A stretch of DNA of 64,000 bases from Chitinophagaceae bacterium (GTDB lineage Bacteria; Bacteroidota; Bacteroidia; Chitinophagales; Chitinophagaceae): NCBI GenBank assembly GCA_027489035.1, contig JAIYAN010000013.1, positions 4,141 through 68,140 of the forward strand. The letters are read 5' to 3'. Each line of letters begins with the position of its first letter. The stretch's first letter is position 1. The translations under genes were made by a program, and so were the position numbers. The notes below the pieces were generated by a model. It saw only the letters and a list, made by a program, of their open reading frames with translations. It was not told the origin of the DNA and made no database searches. Positions 38,932-57,258 of this stretch are shown here, in pieces.

Positions 38932-39480
38932 ATGAAAACACATTTTGATATAGAAAAAATTGTAGAAATGGGCATAATCACCAGTGAATTGGATTATGAA
39001 AGGGCGTTAATTGCGGATAGAAAACTAAGGCTACTTGGGAAGGAAGATGTACATTTTAAACATCTAAGAAAAAAGTTGCGCAACATCATTGAAAAGTATG
39101 AAAATAAGGAATGGAGTGTAGTTGAAAGCATTGATGATAATAAACTTTTAGAAAGCGAGAAAGCGGAAAAGTTTGCAGAATTAGAAAGACAATTTTTAGA
39201 AACCAGAAAAATAGAAATCAGAAAAAAACTAAAAGTGCTTGAACTCACTCAAGAAAATCTGGCTTCAATATTAGGTCATAAAAGCAAGACGCACATGTCG
39301 GAATTGATGAATGGGATCAAGCCATTTACGCTAAGGGATATAATTATTATACATCAACTATTAAAAATAGAAATATCAACATTGATACCTGTGTTTCTTT
39401 CAAAAGAGGAACAAAACAAAATAAACAGAGCGGTTGAGAAATTAGATATATCGAAAGGTGTGAGGATTGGGTATTTGTGA
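38932..39480 (+). CDS. XRE-family HTH protein, HigA-like antitoxin
   Basis: SELDYERALIADRKLR; LTQENLASILGHKSKTHMSELMNG HTH. Confidence 0.75.
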   Translation: MKTHFDIEKIVEMGIITSELDYERALIADRKLRLLGKEDVHFKHLRKKLRNIIEKYENKEWSVVESIDDNKLLESEKAEKFAELERQFLETRKIEIRKKLKVLELTQENLASILGHKSKTHMSELMNGIKPFTLRDIIIIHQLLKIEISTLIPVFLSKEEQNKINRAVEKLDISKGVRIGYL

Positions 39481-39645
39481 TGGAATTGGAATGATTTTAA
39501 GTTAGTTGATTCGAACACAAATAGTAGTAAATAAAAAATACCATAATTTTTAAATATTACAGGAAAAGATATATTTTTGAAGAGGGTGTGTGAGATATAA
39601 ATCTGGCATAAGAGGATTATGGGCAAGTTTGATGACAGACAAAAT

Positions 39646-39707
39646 AGTTGAGACAAGAAAACAACTAAAAAAACAGGGAGCATTCAGAAAATCCAAAAGA
39701 GTAGGAA
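39646..39707 (+). ncRNA. Cassette-leader structured RNA, copy A
   Basis: AGUUG/CAACU hairpin; GGA..UUCA-GAAAA-UCC..G-AGUA-GGAA; 20 nt before ATG 39728. Confidence 0.7.
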
Positions 39708-39727
39708 CAAATTTTTAAAAAAACAAA

Positions 39728-40234
39728 ATGAAAAATTTATTGATTTTAGCAACAATGTTGCTTTCGTTTGGAGCCGTAAATGCTCAAAATCATATTATGA
39801 CATATGATGGTTCATCGTCAGGGGGGAGCGGTTTATTTACAATTGTTGGTAATAACATAATGAGTTATGATGGATCATCTTCAGGGGGTAAAGGTATTTA
39901 CACGATTGTCGGTAATAATATTATGACATATGATGGTTCATCTTCTGGAGGGAGAGGTGTTGCAACTATTAATGGAAATAATATAATGACATATGATGGA
40001 AGTTCTTCAGGTGGAAAGGGAATTGCAACATTTGTAAATAATAATATTATGACTTACGATGGAAGTTCTTCAGGTGGAAAAGGTATAGCCACAAAAGTAA
40101 ATAGCAATTTAATGACTTATGATGGTTCGTCATCTGGCGGAAGGAGAATTTTAACCTTTAAAGATCCATATATGTCCAAGCCAACTTTTGCAGCAATATT
40201 ATTGGCAAAAGGGATTATTTGGAGTGGAAATTAA
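39728..40234 (+). CDS. Secreted tandem-repeat protein (6 x 21-aa IMTYDGSSSGG repeats)
   Basis: Signal peptide ending VNA-Q; repeat period 63 nt with synonymous variation. Confidence 0.85.
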   Translation: MKNLLILATMLLSFGAVNAQNHIMTYDGSSSGGSGLFTIVGNNIMSYDGSSSGGKGIYTIVGNNIMTYDGSSSGGRGVATINGNNIMTYDGSSSGGKGIATFVNNNIMTYDGSSSGGKGIATKVNSNLMTYDGSSSGGRRILTFKDPYMSKPTFAAILLAKGIIWSGN

Positions 40235-40375
40235 ACCAGCCAATAAAACGGGTTTGGCAAAAGTTGCGGTTTATTGCTCCGCAGACACATTTGTGGTTAA
40301 TCAAAGTTTGGTTCTACGCATCAACGTATGTGGTGAAAACCGCCAACTTCTTTTAGCAGCAAACCGTTAACATTC
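40235..40375 (+). mobile_element. attC-like imperfect palindrome 1
   Basis: Starts right after the stop (CAGCCAATAAAA); arms AAGTTGCGGTTT / AAACCGCCAACTT; ends CCGTTAACA. Confidence 0.65.
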
Positions 40376-40388
40376 ATTCATAAAAAAA

Positions 40389-40423
40389 CAGGAGGAAGCC
40401 GAAAATCCTTAATAAGAGTAGGC
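40389..40423 (+). ncRNA. Cassette-leader structured RNA, copy B (pseudoknot domain only)
   Basis: AGGA..GCC-GAAAA-UCCU..G-AGUA-GGC; 26 nt before ATG 40450. Confidence 0.7.
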
Positions 40424-40449
40424 GAAAATTTTAAAAATAAAACAGTATT

Positions 40450-40881
40450 ATGAAAGAAAGTTTTGAAAAACTGGCAGCTGCTATCATCTATTCAGATGGC
40501 GAGGTGGCTCCAAGCGAGTTAAGCCAACTCGAAAAACTGGCTACTGACATAGGTACTGACAAAGCAGCTATGGTAGCTTCCATTGAGGCAGAAATTGAAA
40601 AGCTGAAGCCTATGGATGAAGAAGAATTTCAGCAGTACATGAAAGATGCAGCTTCAGGCATTACAGAGCCTGAGCATCGCTACAAAGCCTTTGATGCGAT
40701 GTTGGAACTTACCTTGGCCGACAATTCTTTGGATGATTTAGAAACCAATGTATTGGGCAATATGTCACAATACTTGGAAATTCCCATTCATTATTTTGCC
40801 AATAATTTGGCTTTTCAAGTCAAGGCAAAAAATGTAGAAATCTTTGCACAAAAAAGTTGGCAAAAACCTGTAGAAATTTAA
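40450..40881 (+). CDS. TerB-like helical protein
   Basis: Two TerB-type half motifs: AIIYSDGEVAPSE and LTLADNSLDDLE. Confidence 0.7.
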   Translation: MKESFEKLAAAIIYSDGEVAPSELSQLEKLATDIGTDKAAMVASIEAEIEKLKPMDEEEFQQYMKDAASGITEPEHRYKAFDAMLELTLADNSLDDLETNVLGNMSQYLEIPIHYFANNLAFQVKAKNVEIFAQKSWQKPVEI

Positions 40882-40893
40882 AAACAAATAAAA

Positions 40894-40924
40894 ACGCGGA
40901 TACCGAAAAGCGAATAGAGTAGGC
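40894..40924 (+). ncRNA. Cassette-leader structured RNA, copy C (pseudoknot domain only)
   Basis: CGC..ACC-GAAAA-GCG..G-AGUA-GGC; 22 nt before ATG 40947. Confidence 0.7.
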
Positions 40925-40946
40925 GTAAAAACTTAAAATCATTAAA

Positions 40947-41150
40947 ATGTCTTTTACAAATATAAAGCTAAAAGGGGGCAAAGTTGGACAAGTATACCAA
41001 ACAATAAATTACTTTTCCGAATCAAAAAACTGCAAATGGTGTGGTAAGGAGATTAAACAACATAAGGCAGTTTTTGAAGCAGATGGTGATGGTTCGAAAC
41101 CATGTTGTGGCATGGCGCATGCGAAGGCATATATGAATGCAAAAATATAA
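40947..41150 (+). CDS. Small putative zinc-binding protein
   Basis: 67 aa; CKWC...CCGMAH ligand set. Confidence 0.6.
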   Translation: MSFTNIKLKGGKVGQVYQTINYFSESKNCKWCGKEIKQHKAVFEADGDGSKPCCGMAHAKAYMNAKI

Positions 41151-42343: not shown

Positions 42344-42362
42344 CAAAACTGATATAATAAAT

Positions 42363-42471
42363 GCTGCCTTTAACAACACAATTACAATAGGCGGCGGTTC
42401 AGTGCTCCGCATCAATATTTGTAGTGAAAATCACCACCTTCGCCTACGCGCTGAACGACGTTATGGGAAAG
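42363..42471 (+). mobile_element. attC-like palindrome 3
   Basis: GCCTTTAAC ... TAGGCGGCGG / CCACCTTCGCCTA ... CGTTATGGG; interior is a shortened version of palindromes 1 and 7. Confidence 0.6.
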
Positions 42472-42527
42472 TTTAAACGTCATAGTGGTTAAAAGCAGGC
42501 TGACCACCTAAAGTGACAAACAAAAAT

Positions 42528-42588
42528 ACTGGAGTCAAGAAAACCACTTTAAAACAGCGAGGATTCCGAAAATCGACAAGAGTAGGAA
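42528..42588 (+). ncRNA. Cassette-leader structured RNA, copy D
   Basis: UGG/CCA hairpin; CGA..UUCC-GAAAA-UCG..G-AGUA-GGAA; 22 nt before ATG 42611. Confidence 0.7.
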
Positions 42589-42610
42589 ACACTTTAAAAT
42601 AAAATAAAAA

Positions 42611-43063
42611 ATGGCACAGGAAATGTATAAACATGATGCATTGCTTCACTTATTGTGGGCAGTTGCAAATGCAGATACTACATCAGATGATCAAAAATAT
42701 GGTGATGCAGTATCCAGTTTAGAAGATGAGTATTATGAAAAGGTTAAAAAGGCAGAAGGAATTGATATTTCCTTTTCAGAAATTGCTGATAAGCGCAAAG
42801 CGTTAAGAAATAGCATTGGATCTGATGGAATCATTAACGAAGCACTGAAGGCTACAAATGGTTGTAGCAAAGAATGGAAAGCGAAAGTAATTGTTTATAT
42901 GATTAAGATGTCTAATAGATCATGGGGCGGTGATTATCTATCGAATGGCGAAAAAATTAATATCTCTGATAGTGAATTTGAAATTATCAAAAAGGCTAGA
43001 AAATACTTAGGTTTAACTGAAGAAGAAGAACAAAAAGGTTGGGACTTAATAAAAGGCTCATAA
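42611..43063 (+). CDS. TerB-like protein
   Basis: LLWAVANAD...LEDE and ISDSEFEIIKKARKYLGL. Confidence 0.6.
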   Translation: MAQEMYKHDALLHLLWAVANADTTSDDQKYGDAVSSLEDEYYEKVKKAEGIDISFSEIADKRKALRNSIGSDGIINEALKATNGCSKEWKAKVIVYMIKMSNRSWGGDYLSNGEKINISDSEFEIIKKARKYLGLTEEEEQKGWDLIKGS

Positions 43064-43193
43064 CAACGCATAAGCAATAGCAGGGCGGAAGTGCTTCATT
43101 GAACTTCTGCCCTTTTTTGTAATTTGTAACTTGTGTTAAGCTTTGGTGCTTTTAAGCCCGCCCATCACAAATCTGCAAACCTTTATGGGCAAG
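43055..43193 (+). mobile_element. attC-like palindrome 4
   Basis: GGCTCATAAC overlaps the stop codon; GGGCGG/GCCC arms; ends CTTTATGGGCAAG. Confidence 0.6.
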
Positions 43194-43257
43194 TTTAAAA
43201 AATAAAAAGGTCTGCGAAACCATAGGGCTGACCACCAAAAGCGACAGAACATAAAAA

Positions 43258-43318
43258 AGTGGAGACCAGAATCCACTCAAAAAAACGGGGCGAAATCCGA
43301 AAAGCTAAACGAGTAGGA
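43258..43318 (+). ncRNA. Cassette-leader structured RNA, copy E
   Basis: AGUGG/CCACU hairpin; GGC..UCC-GAAAA-GCU..G-AGUA-GGA; 18 nt before ATG 43337. Confidence 0.72.
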
Positions 43319-43336
43319 AATAAAAAAAGTAAAAAA

Positions 43337-43588
43337 ATGGCAAACTTCACTTACAAATGTGTTCCTGTTCCTGACGTAATTAATACAGGGAAAACAGGAA
43401 AAGACTTACACTCATACGCTGTAACTTCTTATGAAAAAATTATCAACGATGCTTCCTCGGGCGGTTGGGAACTTGTAAATATTGACACAGTAACTTCTGT
43501 TCAAAGACCAGGTTGTTTAGCAGGTCTATTTGGTGCAAAAGCTCAATCCGTAACGTTTAAACTGTTAGTGTTCAAGAAGACTGTGTAA
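43337..43588 (+). CDS. DUF4177-like small protein
   Basis: True start ATG 43337 (the ORF-track start 43259 reads through the RNA element); FTYKCV...IINDASSGGWELV...LLVFKK. Confidence 0.7.
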   Translation: MANFTYKCVPVPDVINTGKTGKDLHSYAVTSYEKIINDASSGGWELVNIDTVTSVQRPGCLAGLFGAKAQSVTFKLLVFKKTV

Positions 43589-43603
43589 CCAATAAAATTC
43601 TGT

Positions 43604-43629
43604 AAGAAGGAGGGTTCTCCCTCCTTCTT
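43604..43629. terminator. Strong GC-rich hairpin between the DUF4177-like and YidD-like genes
   Basis: AAGAAGGAGGG-TTCT-CCCTCCTTCTT, perfect 11-bp stem, no long U-tract. Confidence 0.55.
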
Positions 43630-43645
43630 ATTAAACAAATGAAGA

Positions 43646-43849
43646 ATGAAAAAAATCCTTATTCTGATTGCACACCTGTATCAAAAAACTGCACCTAAAA
43701 GAATTAGAAACTCTTGTAGATTTGAGCCATCATGTTCGGAGTATATGATTTTGTCATTAAACAAATATGGAGTATGGAAAGGTTTGTCAAAAGGGTTAGG
43801 AAGGTTAAAAAGGTGTAAAATTCCAAATGGAGGAATTGATTATCCTTAA
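43646..43849 (+). CDS. YidD-like (membrane protein insertion efficiency / haemolytic domain) paralogue
   Basis: LYQKTAP..SCRFEPSCSEYMILSLNKYG..GLGRLKRC....GGIDYP. Confidence 0.85.
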   Translation: MKKILILIAHLYQKTAPKRIRNSCRFEPSCSEYMILSLNKYGVWKGLSKGLGRLKRCKIPNGGIDYP

Positions 43850-43976
43850 ATTTTTTGAAATACTGCTACATGCAGTCAAAGTAAAACTTCTAAAGTAATA
43901 ATAAATAAACCGATATTAATAATGTGCAGGCTAAACGGTTCAAAGCATGCTTATCACCTAAAGTAACATACAAAAA

Positions 43977-44037
43977 AGTTGAGACAAGAAAACAACTCAA
44001 AAAACAAGGAGCAATCTGAAAATCCATAAGAGTAAGA
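43977..44037 (+). ncRNA. Cassette-leader structured RNA, copy F
   Basis: AGUUG/CAACU hairpin; GGA..UCU-GAAAA-UCC..G-AGUA-AGA (compensatory UCU/AGA); 20 nt before ATG 44058. Confidence 0.72.
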
Positions 44038-44057
44038 ATAAATTTAAAATCAAAGAA

Positions 44058-44540
44058 ATGAAAAATGTAAAAAGTACTTTGTTATTATCTTATTTATGCC
44101 TGATACTATTATCAAGTTGCAGTGAGAATTACTCAAATGGCGAAAGAATTGGAGTAATAACCCAATTTTCAGAAACAGGTTTAATTTGGAAAAGTTGGGA
44201 AGGTCATTTAAACGTAACTCAAACAGGCATGAATAGTAGTGTACCTTTCGATTTTTCAATTGACAATGATAATCCAGACGAAGAAATAATCAAAAGACTT
44301 GATTCAGCAACTCAATATGGTTGGAAAGTAAAATTAGTTTACCATGAAACTGCTGGTAAAAATTGGTTTAGTAACCGAGGCGAAACAAACCATTTTATTA
44401 CAAAAGTAGAAGTGCTTGAAAAGAATTTTGGAAATGCATTTAACGGAAATCAACAACAGAAAAATTCAGGGAAAGTTATTGATACAATTTATGTAGTTAT
44501 TACTCCCGACAATCCTGATTATAAAAAATTCTTTAAATAA
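44058..44540 (+). CDS. Hypothetical lipoprotein
   Basis: Lipobox LSSC; YSNGERIGVITQFSETGLIWKSWEGHL. Confidence 0.75.
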   Translation: MKNVKSTLLLSYLCLILLSSCSENYSNGERIGVITQFSETGLIWKSWEGHLNVTQTGMNSSVPFDFSIDNDNPDEEIIKRLDSATQYGWKVKLVYHETAGKNWFSNRGETNHFITKVEVLEKNFGNAFNGNQQQKNSGKVIDTIYVVITPDNPDYKKFFK

Positions 44541-44747
44541 AAAATGATAAAAAACGCTCAATAAAATTCGTTACAAGAAATTGGCTGTTCGGTACTTTTT
44601 ATGATCATTTTTTGTTTAACAAACATTCATTCTTCGTAAGAATATACAAGTGATGATGAATAAGTTTTAATTCAGATAAAAAAATAAACGAGTCACCAAG
44701 CGAAAAATTTTCCTACTTAAGTTTTTTTAATATATTTATAAAAAATA

Positions 44748-44806
44748 AGTGGAGTCCAGAAACCACTTTAAAAACGGGGCGAAACCGAAAAGCCTTAAGA
44801 GTAGGA
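44748..44806 (+). ncRNA. Cassette-leader structured RNA, copy G
   Basis: AGUGG/CCACU; GGC..ACC-GAAAA-GCC..G-AGUA-GGA; 18 nt before ATG 44825. Confidence 0.72.
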
Positions 44807-44824
44807 AAATAAAAAATTAATAAA

Positions 44825-44938
44825 ATGGCAAAATCACAAACAAAAAGCGTAACAGGTTCTAAAACCACTACAAAAACAGTTACAAAAGCAGGAAAGGCAG
44901 ATAAGCGCACTAAACTAGGTGGTGCAAAGAAGAAATAA
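44825..44938 (+). CDS. 37-aa Lys/Thr-rich basic peptide
   Basis: Manual translation MAKSQTKSVTGSKTTTKTVTKAGKADKRTKLGGAKKK; sits at the standard distance behind RNA copy G. Confidence 0.6.
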   Translation: MAKSQTKSVTGSKTTTKTVTKAGKADKRTKLGGAKKK

Positions 44939-44958
44939 ATGAAATCAGCAAATTTCAA

Positions 44959-45017
44959 AGTGGAGTCCAGAAACCACTCAAAAAACGGGGCGAAACCGAA
45001 AAGCCTTAAGAGTAGGA
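44959..45017 (+). ncRNA. Cassette-leader structured RNA, copy H
   Basis: Near-identical to copy G; 18 nt before ATG 45036. Confidence 0.72.
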
Positions 45018-45035
45018 AAACAAAATTTTTATAAA

Positions 45036-45668
45036 ATGAAAAAATCAAGAATTATTATCCTCGTTATCCTAATCATTATTGTTGCTATTGGTTATTGCTA
45101 TTTACTTTACAAAACATGGAATATTTTTGGCTTCTGGACATTGATGTGTACTGCTTTAATTTCAATTATTTCAACGTCCTTTCTTGGTAATTTAGTTGGT
45201 TCCAGGACTGAAAACAATGGAGTAATTATGTATAATCCAAAAGAATGGCCCAAATTTTTAAATATGTTGGTTTCACTTGCAATTGGCTATTATTTATTTA
45301 CAAAAATTGATAATCCAAGCATCTCAAGTTATGACTATATATTTGGATTAACATATCTTATACTGTTATCATTAATACCAATATTAATTTCCATTTTTAA
45401 ATTAATTAGAGACCGAAACGATTATATTTCAATAGATGGTGATAGTTTAAAGTACAAGGATAATGATGAAACAGGTGAATTTAAATTTGCAGATATCGCA
45501 ACTGCTGAAATATCTAATGGAATTAAACTAAACTTTAAAGATGATACAACATTGACGATAAAAACAGGCAACATGAATTTTAACGCAAAAGATTTATCAA
45601 ATGCATTTAGTGACATCGTAGCAAGACTACCGGAGGTTAAAATGGAAGATACATCAAATTCAAATTAA
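45036..45668 (+). CDS. Hypothetical membrane protein with a C-terminal PH-like beta domain
   Basis: Four hydrophobic segments followed by RNDYISIDGDSLKYKD. Confidence 0.7.
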   Translation: MKKSRIIILVILIIIVAIGYCYLLYKTWNIFGFWTLMCTALISIISTSFLGNLVGSRTENNGVIMYNPKEWPKFLNMLVSLAIGYYLFTKIDNPSISSYDYIFGLTYLILLSLIPILISIFKLIRDRNDYISIDGDSLKYKDNDETGEFKFADIATAEISNGIKLNFKDDTTLTIKTGNMNFNAKDLSNAFSDIVARLPEVKMEDTSNSN

Positions 45669-45806: not shown

Positions 45807-46211
45807 ATGGCAAGAGAAATAACAACAACAGGATCTAAAAAAGTATCTACGTTAATGAAAGAGTTTAACGAACATTTTCCATATTTACGCTTGAGACTTT
45901 ATAATCCTGAGGTAAAAAAAGCGATTTCTGAAGGTGTTAAATCTCTCACGGAGTTTAGAGTTGATATTGAAAAAACGTTATCTGAGGTTCGTACAAAAAA
46001 AGGTGCTGGAACTGCTTCATTTACAGGAAGTAAAAACGTAGGAACAGTCGAAAAAGAGTTTGAAAATATTTTTGGGTTATTTGCTCAAATTTGTTTTACA
46101 AGTGCTGATGGTGGAATGTTTGCTTCTACGGGGGCGGATGACAAGAAATCATTAACTGAATTAAACAGAGAAAAAGCTGCGGCAGGTTGTTTGAAAGATC
46201 AATGGAAATAA
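45807..46211 (+). CDS. Hypothetical protein with two internally similar halves
   Basis: TGSKKVSTLMKEFNEHFPYL vs TGSKNVGTVEKEFENIFGL. Confidence 0.7.
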   Translation: MAREITTTGSKKVSTLMKEFNEHFPYLRLRLYNPEVKKAISEGVKSLTEFRVDIEKTLSEVRTKKGAGTASFTGSKNVGTVEKEFENIFGLFAQICFTSADGGMFASTGADDKKSLTELNREKAAAGCLKDQWK

Positions 46212-46215
46212 CAAT

Positions 46216-46320
46216 ATTGTAACATCGTATTAGCAATATTAGGGCAAAAGTACTTCATTGAACTTTTGCCCTTTTTTTATTTGTTCTAGTTAAAAACTTT
46301 GGTATTTTTAAAAAATGTAA
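46216..46320 (+). mobile_element. attC-like palindrome 5 (degenerate)
   Basis: Shares AGGGC..AAGT.CTTCATTGAACTT.TGCCCTTTTT with palindrome 4. Confidence 0.5.
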
Positions 46321-55338: not shown

Positions 55339-56139
55339 ATGAAAATATTTACTGTAGATACTTTTACAAACAAACCTTTTACAGGAAACCAAGCTGGAGT
55401 TTGTATTCTTGATAAAGACATAGATGATAGTTTAATGTTACAAATTGCTAAAGAACTAAATTATTCAGAGACAGCATTTGCTTTACCACTAGAAGAAAAT
55501 TTTAATAAGTTTAATTTGAGATGGTTTACCCCAAAACAAGAAGTAGATTTATGTGGACACGCAACATTAGCAACTTCTAGAGTACTTTACGAAATTGGAT
55601 TAGTAAATAAAAATCTTTCTATAGATTTTGAAACAAGAAGCGGTGTACTGGTAACTAATATTTCAGGGGAAAAAATTATAATGAACTTCCCATCAAGGCA
55701 AGTAAATCAAAGCAATGCAGACGAAATCATTATTAAATTTACACAAGCAAACCCAGTCTTTGTAGGGATTGATGAAAATTGGTGCTTGGTGGAGCTAGAG
55801 AATGAAAAAGCAGTAAAATCAATAACTCCTGATTTTGAATTATTAAAAACGCATAGGCAAAAGGTTTTTACAATTACAGCTAAATCTGATAATCCAGCGT
55901 TTGATTTTGTTTCTCGATGTTTTGGTCCAGCGGTTGGGATAAATGAAGATCCAGTTACAGGATCAGCACATTGTTATTTGACTCCATATTGGGCAGACAA
56001 GCTAAGGAAGAAAAAATTAACAGGCTTTCAAGCTTCAGAGAGGACAGGGAAAATAGAGTGTGAATTAATTGAAAACGGAAGAGTACTTTTGACTGGGGAA
56101 AGTTTAATAATGTGTGAAATAAAACAAAACTGGGCATAA
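55339..56139 (+). CDS. PhzF-family isomerase
   Basis: VDTFTNKPFTGNQAGV, NYSETAF, EVDLCGHATLA, EDPVTGSAHC. Confidence 0.93.
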   Translation: MKIFTVDTFTNKPFTGNQAGVCILDKDIDDSLMLQIAKELNYSETAFALPLEENFNKFNLRWFTPKQEVDLCGHATLATSRVLYEIGLVNKNLSIDFETRSGVLVTNISGEKIIMNFPSRQVNQSNADEIIIKFTQANPVFVGIDENWCLVELENEKAVKSITPDFELLKTHRQKVFTITAKSDNPAFDFVSRCFGPAVGINEDPVTGSAHCYLTPYWADKLRKKKLTGFQASERTGKIECELIENGRVLLTGESLIMCEIKQNWA

Positions 56140-56270
56140 CAGGCGTTTGGTTCAATGGCGGGTGCAGTGGTTAATTGAACATTGTACCTCGCATCAACTT
56201 TCCTTGTATATTGACAGTATAATTATCCAAAATCCCCACTGCGCCAAGCAAGGGAACGCTGGCTGCAACC
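56131..56270 (+). mobile_element. attC-like palindrome 6
   Basis: TGGGCATAAC overlaps the phzF stop; TTGG..GGCGGGTGCAG / CCCCACTGCGCCAA arms; ends GCTGGCTGCAACC. Confidence 0.65.
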
Positions 56271-57027: not shown

Positions 57028-57166
57028 GGTAGCAGCCAACACATTTACAATTGGCGGGGTTTTATGCTCTGAAGACAATTTTGTGGTAGCCAAAAGTTTA
57101 GTTCTCAACATCAATATTTGTGCTAAAAAATCCGCCCATCGCAAATCTGAAAACCGTTAAAGCCAA
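57028..57166 (+). mobile_element. attC-like palindrome 7
   Basis: GGTAGCAGCCAAC ... TTGGCGGGGTTT / AATCCGCCCATCGCAA ... CCGTTAAAGCC; interior homologous to palindrome 1. Confidence 0.65.
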
Positions 57167-57258
57167 TTTAAATATCTCTAGAAAAGCAATAATGATAGGT
57201 TAACCAGAAAAGTGAATTAATGAAAACTTCCCCATAACTTCCAAGCGGAAACAAATCC

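Follow-up and report, generated by a model that had tools for sequence, protein, structure and literature searches.

We analyzed a 64,000-nucleotide (64 kb) stretch of DNA from a Chitinophagaceae bacterium (GenBank assembly GCA_027489035.1, contig JAIYAN010000013.1, positions 4,141 to 68,140 of the forward strand; hereafter the window), in which several open reading frames (ORFs) of an integron-like cassette array are preceded by a leader composed of the core of an attC-type recombination site, a linker, and a structured RNA of the Rfam family DUF805. By comparing this leader with its counterparts at loci gathered from other genomes and metagenomes (L001-L240), we show that, judged by sequence, core, linker, and RNA form one homologous module placed before mostly unrelated ORFs. 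The comparison further supports the view that the RNA lies inside the cassette unit, and it points to a possible role of the leader in translation initiation.

The leader module and its RNA

The identity of the RNA was established by cmscan against Rfam, using the gathering cutoffs of 51.1 bits for DUF805 and 35.6 bits for DUF805b. Eight copies, all on the + strand and all at gathering scores, were found: six of DUF805 (RF03081), namely A (39642..39711, 59.6 bits), D (42524..42592, 53.3 bits), E (43254..43323, 77.3 bits), F (43973..44043, 56.6 bits), G (44744..44811, 90 bits), and H (44955..45022, 87 bits), and two of DUF805b (RF02914), namely B (40389..40424, 45.7 bits) and C (40893..40925, 42.5 bits). 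Because DUF805b is without hairpin P1, copies B and C consist of the 3' pseudoknot domain only, just as a preliminary description of the window had read them. Copy C is intercistronic, ~10 nt past the stop codon of a TerB-domain ORF; copy G lies upstream of a 37-aa lysine-rich ORF (44826-44939), and copy H, again intercistronic, lies 15 nt past the stop codon of that small ORF and upstream of the ORF at 45036-45668. Located 211 nt from each other, copies G and H are duplicates at 91% identity.

The region from 42460 to 44058 comprises cassettes D and E plus the leader of F. The core, TTATGGG(C/A)AAGTT, starts at 39617, 42461, and 43183, and the core search thus placed an extended R' core on the + strand in cassettes A (39617..39629, TTATGGGCAAGTT, where the base at the crossover position, 39616, is A and not G), D (42461..42473, TTATGGGAAAGTT), and E (43183..43195). 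In cassette D, a class I linker (42487..42526, GGCTGACCACCTAAAGTGACA) is present between core and RNA, and its counterparts in cassette E (43215..43254) and in the leader of F (43937..43976, with neither core nor attC site upstream) belong to the same + strand repeat family, D9, at 65-85% identity. The extra block reported in the preliminary description for D, E, and F was recovered at its exact starts (GCTGACCACC at 42499 and 43227, GCTTATCACC at 43949), and, because the same block occurs in seven leaders of other genomes and metagenomes, it is not a chance match. That description had also placed an attC-like core on one side of copies A, B, D, and E and the ORF on the other; such a core was indeed found ahead of A, D, and E, and copy B lies 21 nt past the GTT (40366-40368) of an R' box. 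Upstream of copies G and H, there is neither a linker nor a core or attC site.

The leaders of D, E, and F share 74-84% identity with those at L141 (two consecutive cassettes), L220, L085, L122, and L174, and the leader of A shares 83-88% identity with those at L085, L141, and L220. The homology starts at the core or just before it and runs to the start codon: it ends at 42609 in D (ATG at 42611) and at 43336-43344 in E (ATG at 43337), with unrelated ORFs beyond, and at 44063-44076 in F, a few bases beyond the ATG at 44058. Homologues of the ORF of cassette A, which are repeat proteins, occur at L085, L220, and in one cassette of L141, where the leader includes the linker that A is without. 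The modularity proposed for the element in the preliminary description is borne out by this leader, common as it is to mostly unrelated ORFs.

The same layout recurs at L040, L044, L077, L079, L085, and L099, in agreement with the earlier claim that the RNA sits inside the mobile unit: each shows G|TTATGGGCAAGTT, leader, DUF805, ORF, AACCAGCCCATAAC, a palindrome, and the next R'. The 5' core of the unit is complementary to its own 3' R'' at 12 of 14 positions and, because the two would together make one R box in an excised circle, RNA and ORF belong to the same cassette. In addition, some units (L085, L030, and L011) are without a recognizable upstream attC site, so that the leader appears to be tied to the downstream ORF and attC. 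Taken together, these comparisons support the location of the RNA inside the cassette unit.

The counts given here and below come from two collection scans, each made with one sequence pattern, and they hold among the matches listed. The linker was seen only together with the core (3/13 versus 0/107 listed copies; reverse-strand control, 0). By eye, the class II linker of L011, L040, L094, and L099 resembles class I with ~40 nt added between two GACAA repeats, and a candidate hairpin in the class I linker shifts its register among copies. Contigs of metagenome run X2 join 43200/43202 straight to 43254/43255, which would give a leader of cassette E without the 52-nt linker; this form is weakly evidenced because the flanks are just 20-22 nt long and A-rich. 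Four attC-anchored loci (L149, L186, L222, and L228) have a core-like R', no DUF805, and short leaders rich in (C/T)GACA(G/A)AC repeats, a block that window copies A, D, and E also have, directly 5' of P1.

Covariation analysis over 132 listed DUF805 copies supported two hairpins, P1 (pairs 19-36 and 21-34; 19-36 is GC in 65 and AT in 28 copies) and P2 (48-64 and 50-62; 50-62 is CG in 109 and AT in 14), as well as two pseudoknots. In the first pseudoknot, the CC of the P1 loop pairs with G46/G47 (26-47 and 27-46, with CG to TA covariation), and in the second, C55/C56 of the P2 loop pair with the GG of the GAGUAGG tail (56-74: CG in 91, TA in 20, and TG in 17). Extension of the loop 2 pairing, (A/U/G)CC-GG(A/C), beyond two base pairs was unsupported, position 54-76 being just 46% Watson-Crick. 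The end of the motif lies a median of 20 nt from the ATG (interquartile range, 18-24 nt), across an A-rich spacer. Consistent with the context that Rfam gives for DUF805, the listed copies, almost all from Bacteroidota, lie on the coding strand before an ORF, and in most of them the ATG follows 18-24 nt downstream. Neither a terminator nor pairing with the start codon was found within the motif. GAGUAGG was considered as a Shine-Dalgarno (SD) sequence and rejected, being ~20 nt from the ATG and having its GG paired in the pseudoknot. Because copies C and H, together with 8/129 listed copies that sit 40 nt or less behind the stop codon of an upstream ORF, follow so closely on other ORFs, the motif would function inside a polycistronic RNA.

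Comparative methods do not tell single-stranded DNA motifs from RNA motifs, and another conserved motif, DUF1874, has been proposed as a possible attC site (PMC5737381); the DUF805 motif might by the same token act as single-stranded DNA, as an accessory to the recombination site. We consider this highly improbable in view of the fixed spacing to the ATG, the location of most copies far from any attC site, and RNA-derived contigs in which the motif is co-transcribed with its ORF. Moreover, the motif always lies on the coding strand (12 versus 2 fuzzy matches, including all ~9 genuine ones): the fuzzy search, over 598 kb, gave ~9 genuine RNA copies, all on the attC strand and nearly all directly past R'.

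The attC-type sites, the array, and associated recombinases

The metagenomes were scanned for sites with a pattern taken from the site center, which is independent of both the RNA and the core. Among the metagenome sites listed, the spacing AAC..GTT is 118 nt in 75/97 (124 nt from AAC to GTT inclusive), the R' consensus is GTTA(G/T)nGGCAA, and the R'' consensus is CCAGCCnATAAC; in extended form, the two are mutually complementary. The G of R' is conserved in 99% of these sites, TT in 95%, the A at +3 in 75%, and the T-AAC of R'' in 90-100%. The R''(RYYYAAC)/R'(GTTRRRY) arrangement of attC sites was thus found, with the RRRY/RYYY positions only loosely purine/pyrimidine and a box longer than 7 bp. 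Because the R' consensus of the metagenome sites agrees with it, the core described earlier is the consensus extended R' box (GTTATGGGCAAGTT) of a very uniform attC family of Bacteroidota.

From 69 of these metagenome sites, independent of the window, we built an nhmmer profile, which detected five attC-type sites in the window, every one on the strand of the ORFs (+). The best preserved, at 40234..40376 (R''ext AACCAGCCAATAAAAC at 40234-40249, R' GTT at 40366-40368; nhmmer 40236-40376, E 4.5e-25), has an arm duplex of -17 kcal/mol and is a member of a high-copy family: a near-identical copy of 40234-40379 is present in a metagenome-assembled genome (MAG) of Cytophagales (L069), and in four metagenomes the depth of 40248-40333 is 10-100 times that of its neighbors. 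In BLAST, ~60 loci are homologous to 40223-40370, and the homology breaks off at 40367-40370, the G|TT crossover. Metagenome contigs placed on the array reveal the high attC copy number and are too short for synteny breaks. The second site, 42360..42473, is shortened; it ends in the R' G42460|TT, and its right half fits the profile (nhmmer 42397-42471, E 7e-07). The third, 3' of ORF D at 43055..43193 (E 5e-04; repeat family D11), has T instead of G as the first base of R' (43182), so that, with the A at 39616, the R' G is replaced in two sites of the window. Its left arm doubles as a terminator-like hairpin by folding (43082-43113, plus a T run to 43118), and the hairpin with its T run recurs at 46240-46277, after the ORF at 45807-46211, without the right half of the site. 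The remaining sites lie 3' of a PhzF-like ORF (56130..56269, E 3e-11) and at 57048..57167 (E 2e-08); in the latter, the core (GTTAAAGCCAATTT) is degenerate and is not followed by an RNA.

We then compared the arms of 16 curated sites, from 11 genome-collection loci and the window; 15 of them are 140-149 nt long from R''ext to R'ext, and the shortened one at 42360-42473 is 114 nt long. The pairing energy is -14.5 kcal/mol for cognate arms versus -9.8 kcal/mol for non-cognate arms, the cognate partner ranked first in 9/16, and none of 20,000 permutations equaled this result. The arm sequences vary among the curated sites while the pairing persists, which is the conservation of structure over sequence that defines attC, and the arm duplexes contain asymmetric bulges, to which canonical extrahelical positions were not assigned. 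The sites begin at or near stop codons, one per ORF and co-oriented with it, as expected of attC sites, whose usual length of about 57-141 nt includes the 124 nt from AAC to GTT inclusive. RNAalifold on MAFFT alignments of the attC sites, and likewise of the leaders, detected almost nothing because the arms are out of register in the alignments, and the cognate versus non-cognate test was used instead. A loose home-made AAC/GTT palindrome detector did not separate the array from control regions and was dropped; its replacement, an energy-based detector with fixed spacing, had no false positives in the window at about half sensitivity and was followed by the nhmmer profile.

Overall, the comparisons support the conclusion that the attC-like sites of the window behave as real attC-type sites. 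The 118-nt elements could alternatively be a family of intergenic repeats (of the repetitive extragenic palindromic or miniature inverted-repeat transposable element kind) or of terminators, in a region of ordinary small operons. The window contains no integrase, one element includes a terminator-like hairpin, single-sequence DNA folds of the intergenic regions were not better than shuffles, and the recombinases associated with related loci score below the integron-integrase cutoff, all of which would suit such a family. It would not account for AAC/GTT inverse cores in exact R''/R' geometry with arm covariation, strict co-orientation with the ORFs, one element per ORF beginning at the stop codon, homology that breaks exactly at G|TT, or the IntI-like recombinases and group II introns nearby, and we regard it as improbable.

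The array as a whole (~39.6-58.1 kb), flanked by katG/rho on one side and genes of the type IX secretion system kind on the other, reads as a partly decayed array of integron-type cassettes on the chromosome of a freshwater bacterium of the Bacteroidota. Because the window has five attC-type sites and no integrase, we label it CALIN-like (a cluster of attC sites with no integron integrase). None of 40 window ORFs scanned with Pfam matched Phage_integrase, a six-frame search of the 64 kb gave no box II signature, and the combination of intI, attI, and promoter Pc beside an array that marks a complete integron was absent from the window.

IntI-like tyrosine recombinases were found in 6/120 listed attC-anchored loci, where they adjoin attC arrays: L138:2402-3574(+), L146:13361-14476(-), L150:8534-9391(-), L182:3687-4652(-), L204:8794-9981(-), and L227:2467-3108(-). 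These six emerged with a looser box II regular expression; the strict one gave no recombinase in the DUF805-anchored loci. Their best matches are integron-integrase models; however, they score 165-228 bits versus the TIGR02249 cutoff of 265, and the match is split (profile ~2-178 and 237-315), skipping the region of the IntI-specific insertion, which is seemingly absent. A C-terminal SPLD-like motif is present, the full-length proteins (L138, L146, and L204) have an N-terminal extension of ~100-120 aa, and five of the six genes are oriented like the attC sites. Judging from these features, the recombinases may belong to a non-canonical integrase lineage of Bacteroidota. At two loci, cassettes with the DUF805 leader have group II intron domains next to them, namely at L024 (3283-5819, on the - strand, opposite to the cassette) and L108 (1-75, 797-854, and 5709-5786). 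Insertion into attC sites is known for one lineage of group II introns (PMC3001079).

The remaining ORFs of the array are diverse. At its left edge, a 182-aa ORF (38932-39480), with a helix-turn-helix-like stretch by eye and no Pfam match, lies ahead of the R' at 39616, which is the first of the array and is degenerate. In cassette A, the ORF (39728..40234, +; 168 aa) has a weak Bflower_3 match and 63-nt tandem repeats at 39788-40165 (a unit of 21 aa, reported as five overlapping 126-nt copies with 63-nt spacing). It is followed on the + strand by the TerB-domain ORF (40450..40881; Pfam PF05099) and, 3' of copy C, by a 67-aa ORF (40947..41150). The ORFs of cassettes D (42611..43063, +; 150 aa) and F (44058..44540, +; 160 aa) have no Pfam match, and that of cassette E (43337..43588, +; 83 aa) is a DUF4177 protein. 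Between cassettes E and F lies an ORF of the YidD family (membrane protein insertion efficiency factor; 43646-43849) with no attC site on either side.

Distribution of the RNA and its proposed function

Sampling by RNA gave 126 listed copies in 120 loci of the genome collection, nearly all in Bacteroidota. A core lies 55-140 nt upstream on the same strand in ~15/126, and a separate count with a 12-mer core regular expression gave 13/120 versus 0/120 in the reverse-strand control. Whether the RNA is enriched beside attC-like sites elsewhere had been set beforehand, in the preliminary description, as the check on its proposal, and the proposal passed that check because the enrichment is strong. 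With the structural detector and the profile added, ~17-18 copies, or roughly 14% of those listed, are in attC context, and ~86% have no detectable attC context. Sampling by attC used 94 listed sites with enough downstream sequence. The strict pattern placed the RNA after 3 of them, and inspection by eye added that of L220, which makes 3-4%. The RNA follows 3/12 sites with an extended core versus 0/82 others (Fisher p = 0.0016). Because each scan used one pattern, with counts among the matches listed, these co-occurrence percentages are rough. They nonetheless speak against the further suggestion that attC array and RNA are two parts of one capture and expression system, given the ~86% of listed RNAs without attC and the 3-4/94 cassettes that carry the RNA. 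On this sampling, the DUF805 RNA is an optional leader of one cassette sub-family rather than a component integral to the recombination system. Among cultured carriers, Flavobacterium sp. 28A (L015) has the RNA together with a core-like site. Three Pseudomonas isolates (L029, L082, and L090) likewise have the DUF805 pattern ahead of an ORF, with a GGAGA block after it near the ATG, so that the family is not strictly confined to Bacteroidota; the Proteobacteria labels of the MAGs at L044, L079, and L094 are probably binning errors.

The same numbers bear on the possibility that DUF805 is an ordinary regulatory 5' untranslated region (UTR) of small Bacteroidota genes, captured along with them by passive hitch-hiking and without any tie to cassette biology. 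This would explain why most listed copies lie outside detectable attC context and why the RNA is found on so few attC-anchored cassettes; it would also agree with the strong sequence conservation of loops and joining regions and with the filing of DUF805 as cis-regulatory in Rfam. It would not explain why the entire leader, and not the motif alone, is 74-88% identical before mostly unrelated ORFs with the homology ending at the ATG, why the linker is found only with the R' core, or why the RNA is restricted to cassettes with the most consensus-like R'. The downstream genes are also very diverse, which is unusual for a metabolite riboswitch. We therefore treat hitch-hiking as possible but doubtful.

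The preliminary description had proposed that the cassettes carry their own expression module. Its promoter part, in which core and linker would hold a promoter, the cassette would be self-transcribing, and the RNA would mark the 5' end of the transcript, now appears unlikely. TAnnTTTG, the -7 box of Bacteroidetes, is not positionally enriched upstream of cassette or other copies, a result with which a non-consensus promoter remains compatible; a perfect box is missing from the 30 nt examined just upstream of P1 in all 16 core-bearing copies, the class I linker of the window contains no TAnnTTTG-type box, sigma-70-type matches in the array are at shuffle level (50 versus 45), and copies C and H and 8/129 listed copies leave no room for a promoter. 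In favor of a promoter, there are precedents in cmlA and many Vibrio cassettes (PMC8876359), the terminator-like hairpin (43082-43118) upstream of cassette E, and TTTG and T(T/A)ATTTTG blocks in class II linkers of other loci. In addition, RNA-derived contigs of Chryseobacterium, which span the motif and its ORF at a non-cassette copy, terminate 30-55 nt upstream of P1 and close to a perfect TATCTTTG box; these are unstranded, low-depth assemblies that do not fix the transcript start, and the same holds for the RNA-derived contigs of Flavobacterium johnsoniae, where the motif is present at L100. Among RNA runs, none was found to include the window. Transcription thus most likely comes from outside the leader, in which we recognized no promoter.

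The translational part of the proposed expression module fared better, and on balance we lean toward an action of the leader at the RNA level on translation initiation. Ribosomes of Bacteroidia do not recognize SD sequences, and their initiation depends on how the mRNA is structured and on A residues upstream (PMC7797042, PMC6847099). In addition, attC stem-loops hinder translation of downstream cassettes, and some cassettes have leaders of their own (PMC8876359). Because ribosomes are SD-blind and attC hairpins impede translation, a portable translation-initiation element would be the most economical reading. In a well-preserved unit, the G|TT crossover and extended R' (GTTATGGGCAAGTT) are followed by the ~40-nt linker, the DUF805 RNA, the A-rich spacer of 18-24 nt, and the ORF with its ATG; R'' (AACCAGCCCATAAC) and the imperfect palindrome close the unit, 118 nt separating AAC from the next GTT. 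Set at a fixed distance from the AUG, the pseudoknot, which is compact and folds by itself, would provide the cassette with an autonomous initiation region, either as a docking or standby element for the ribosome or as an insulator against upstream attC hairpins, and this region would work at any place that the cassette takes up in a polycistronic transcript. A regulatory switch is another role that the fold might have: measured against the hallmarks of riboswitches, it is conserved, its downstream genes are heterogeneous, and it shows neither a terminator nor start-codon sequestration. Enhancing, insulating, and switching are three possible modes of the DUF805 leader, between which we cannot decide. 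In its full form, in which the leader would be a mobile module dedicated to translation initiation, serving as a structured landing pad for ribosomes and moving among ORFs as a unit with the extended R' box, the proposal is tentative.

Several of the findings weigh against an action on translation initiation in these cassettes. Some of the attC sites in the window are degenerate, no integrase accompanies them there, and the recombinases of related loci depart from integron integrases in score and in profile coverage, as described above. Because ~86% of the listed copies are without attC context, the DUF805 motif is not cassette-specific. Its highly conserved loop sequence would fit a ligand- or protein-binding regulator as well, and we infer the translational role from spacing, position, and phylum biology only. 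As a corollary of the proposal in its full form, the complete 5' UTR, the terminator hairpin that is sometimes found in the attC arm, and the adjacent group II introns would fit cassettes made from mRNA by reverse transcription.

Relation to known systems and implications

DUF805 and DUF805b (clan CL00115) are candidate structured RNAs reported by Weinberg et al. (2017), with which the window copies share the hairpins, the GAGUAGG tail, the position before an ORF, and a Bacteroidota host. We found no description of the function or genomic context of DUF805 in the literature searched, and the motif is absent from the main text of PMC5737381. New for DUF805 are its placement in attC-bounded cassettes with a shared leader, the two covariation-supported pseudoknots, and the fixed spacing of 18-24 nt. 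Another motif of Weinberg et al. (2017), DUF1874, is likewise conserved in consecutive intergenic regions, and a link to integrons was raised for it (PMC5737381); however, DUF1874 was suggested to be attC itself, whereas here the attC site is separate and DUF805 lies downstream of it, beside the start codon.

The array resembles a CALIN, as defined by IntegronFinder, in that each ORF is followed by an imperfect palindrome with AAC/GTT inverse cores, in which structure is conserved over sequence, in co-orientation, in the G|TT crossover, and in having no integrase nearby. It is unlike a CALIN in that the R box is extended to about 9-14 bp, the site length is nearly invariant (118 nt from AAC to GTT), and the recombinases found with it have a non-canonical look. 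One sub-family here has a structured leader of 150-190 nt, in contrast to the very short 5' regions of classical cassettes.

Cis elements of cassettes are known from cmlA1, with its promoter and translation-attenuation leader, and from the translational coupling of ORF-11/ORF-18 at attI1, which, like the leader proposed here, ease the dependence on array position and attC hairpins (PMC8876359). Those systems are SD-reliant and consist of gene-specific leaders or a short ORF borne by attI (PMC8876359), whereas the DUF805 leader is one structured RNA family, without leader peptide or SD logic, that is common to mostly unrelated cassettes. The aminoglycoside riboswitch proposed in leaders of class 1 integrons was similarly claimed to be a structured RNA controlling cassette translation; its sequence is the attI1 site, and that reading has been superseded by ORF-11-dependent attenuation (PMC8876359). 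DUF805, in contrast, is a separate covariation-supported fold inside the cassette. In the literature searched, we found no description of a covariation-supported RNA family common to mostly unrelated cassettes, nor of an attC family with fixed 118-nt spacing and a long R box, nor of IntI-like enzymes without the hallmark insertion.

Complete integrons are reported to be rare in Bacteroidetes (PMC9024848), and it is in this phylum, where integrons were thought to be rare, that we find an attC family which is widespread, unusually uniform, and accompanied by non-canonical IntI-like recombinases. The orphan DUF805 family gains its first concrete genomic context together with a testable function, for which F. 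johnsoniae (L100) is a tractable host. That mostly unrelated ORFs share this leader, and that its homology ends at the ATG, is relevant to how cassettes are assembled. The expression of cassettes has been addressed for Proteobacteria, in terms of ORF-11 and SD-containing initiation regions, and not for Bacteroidota; if the function is confirmed, the leader would show how promoterless cassettes come to be expressed in a phylum with SD-blind ribosomes, and if it is indeed a dedicated mobile module, any captured ORF would be translated wherever its cassette lands in these bacteria.

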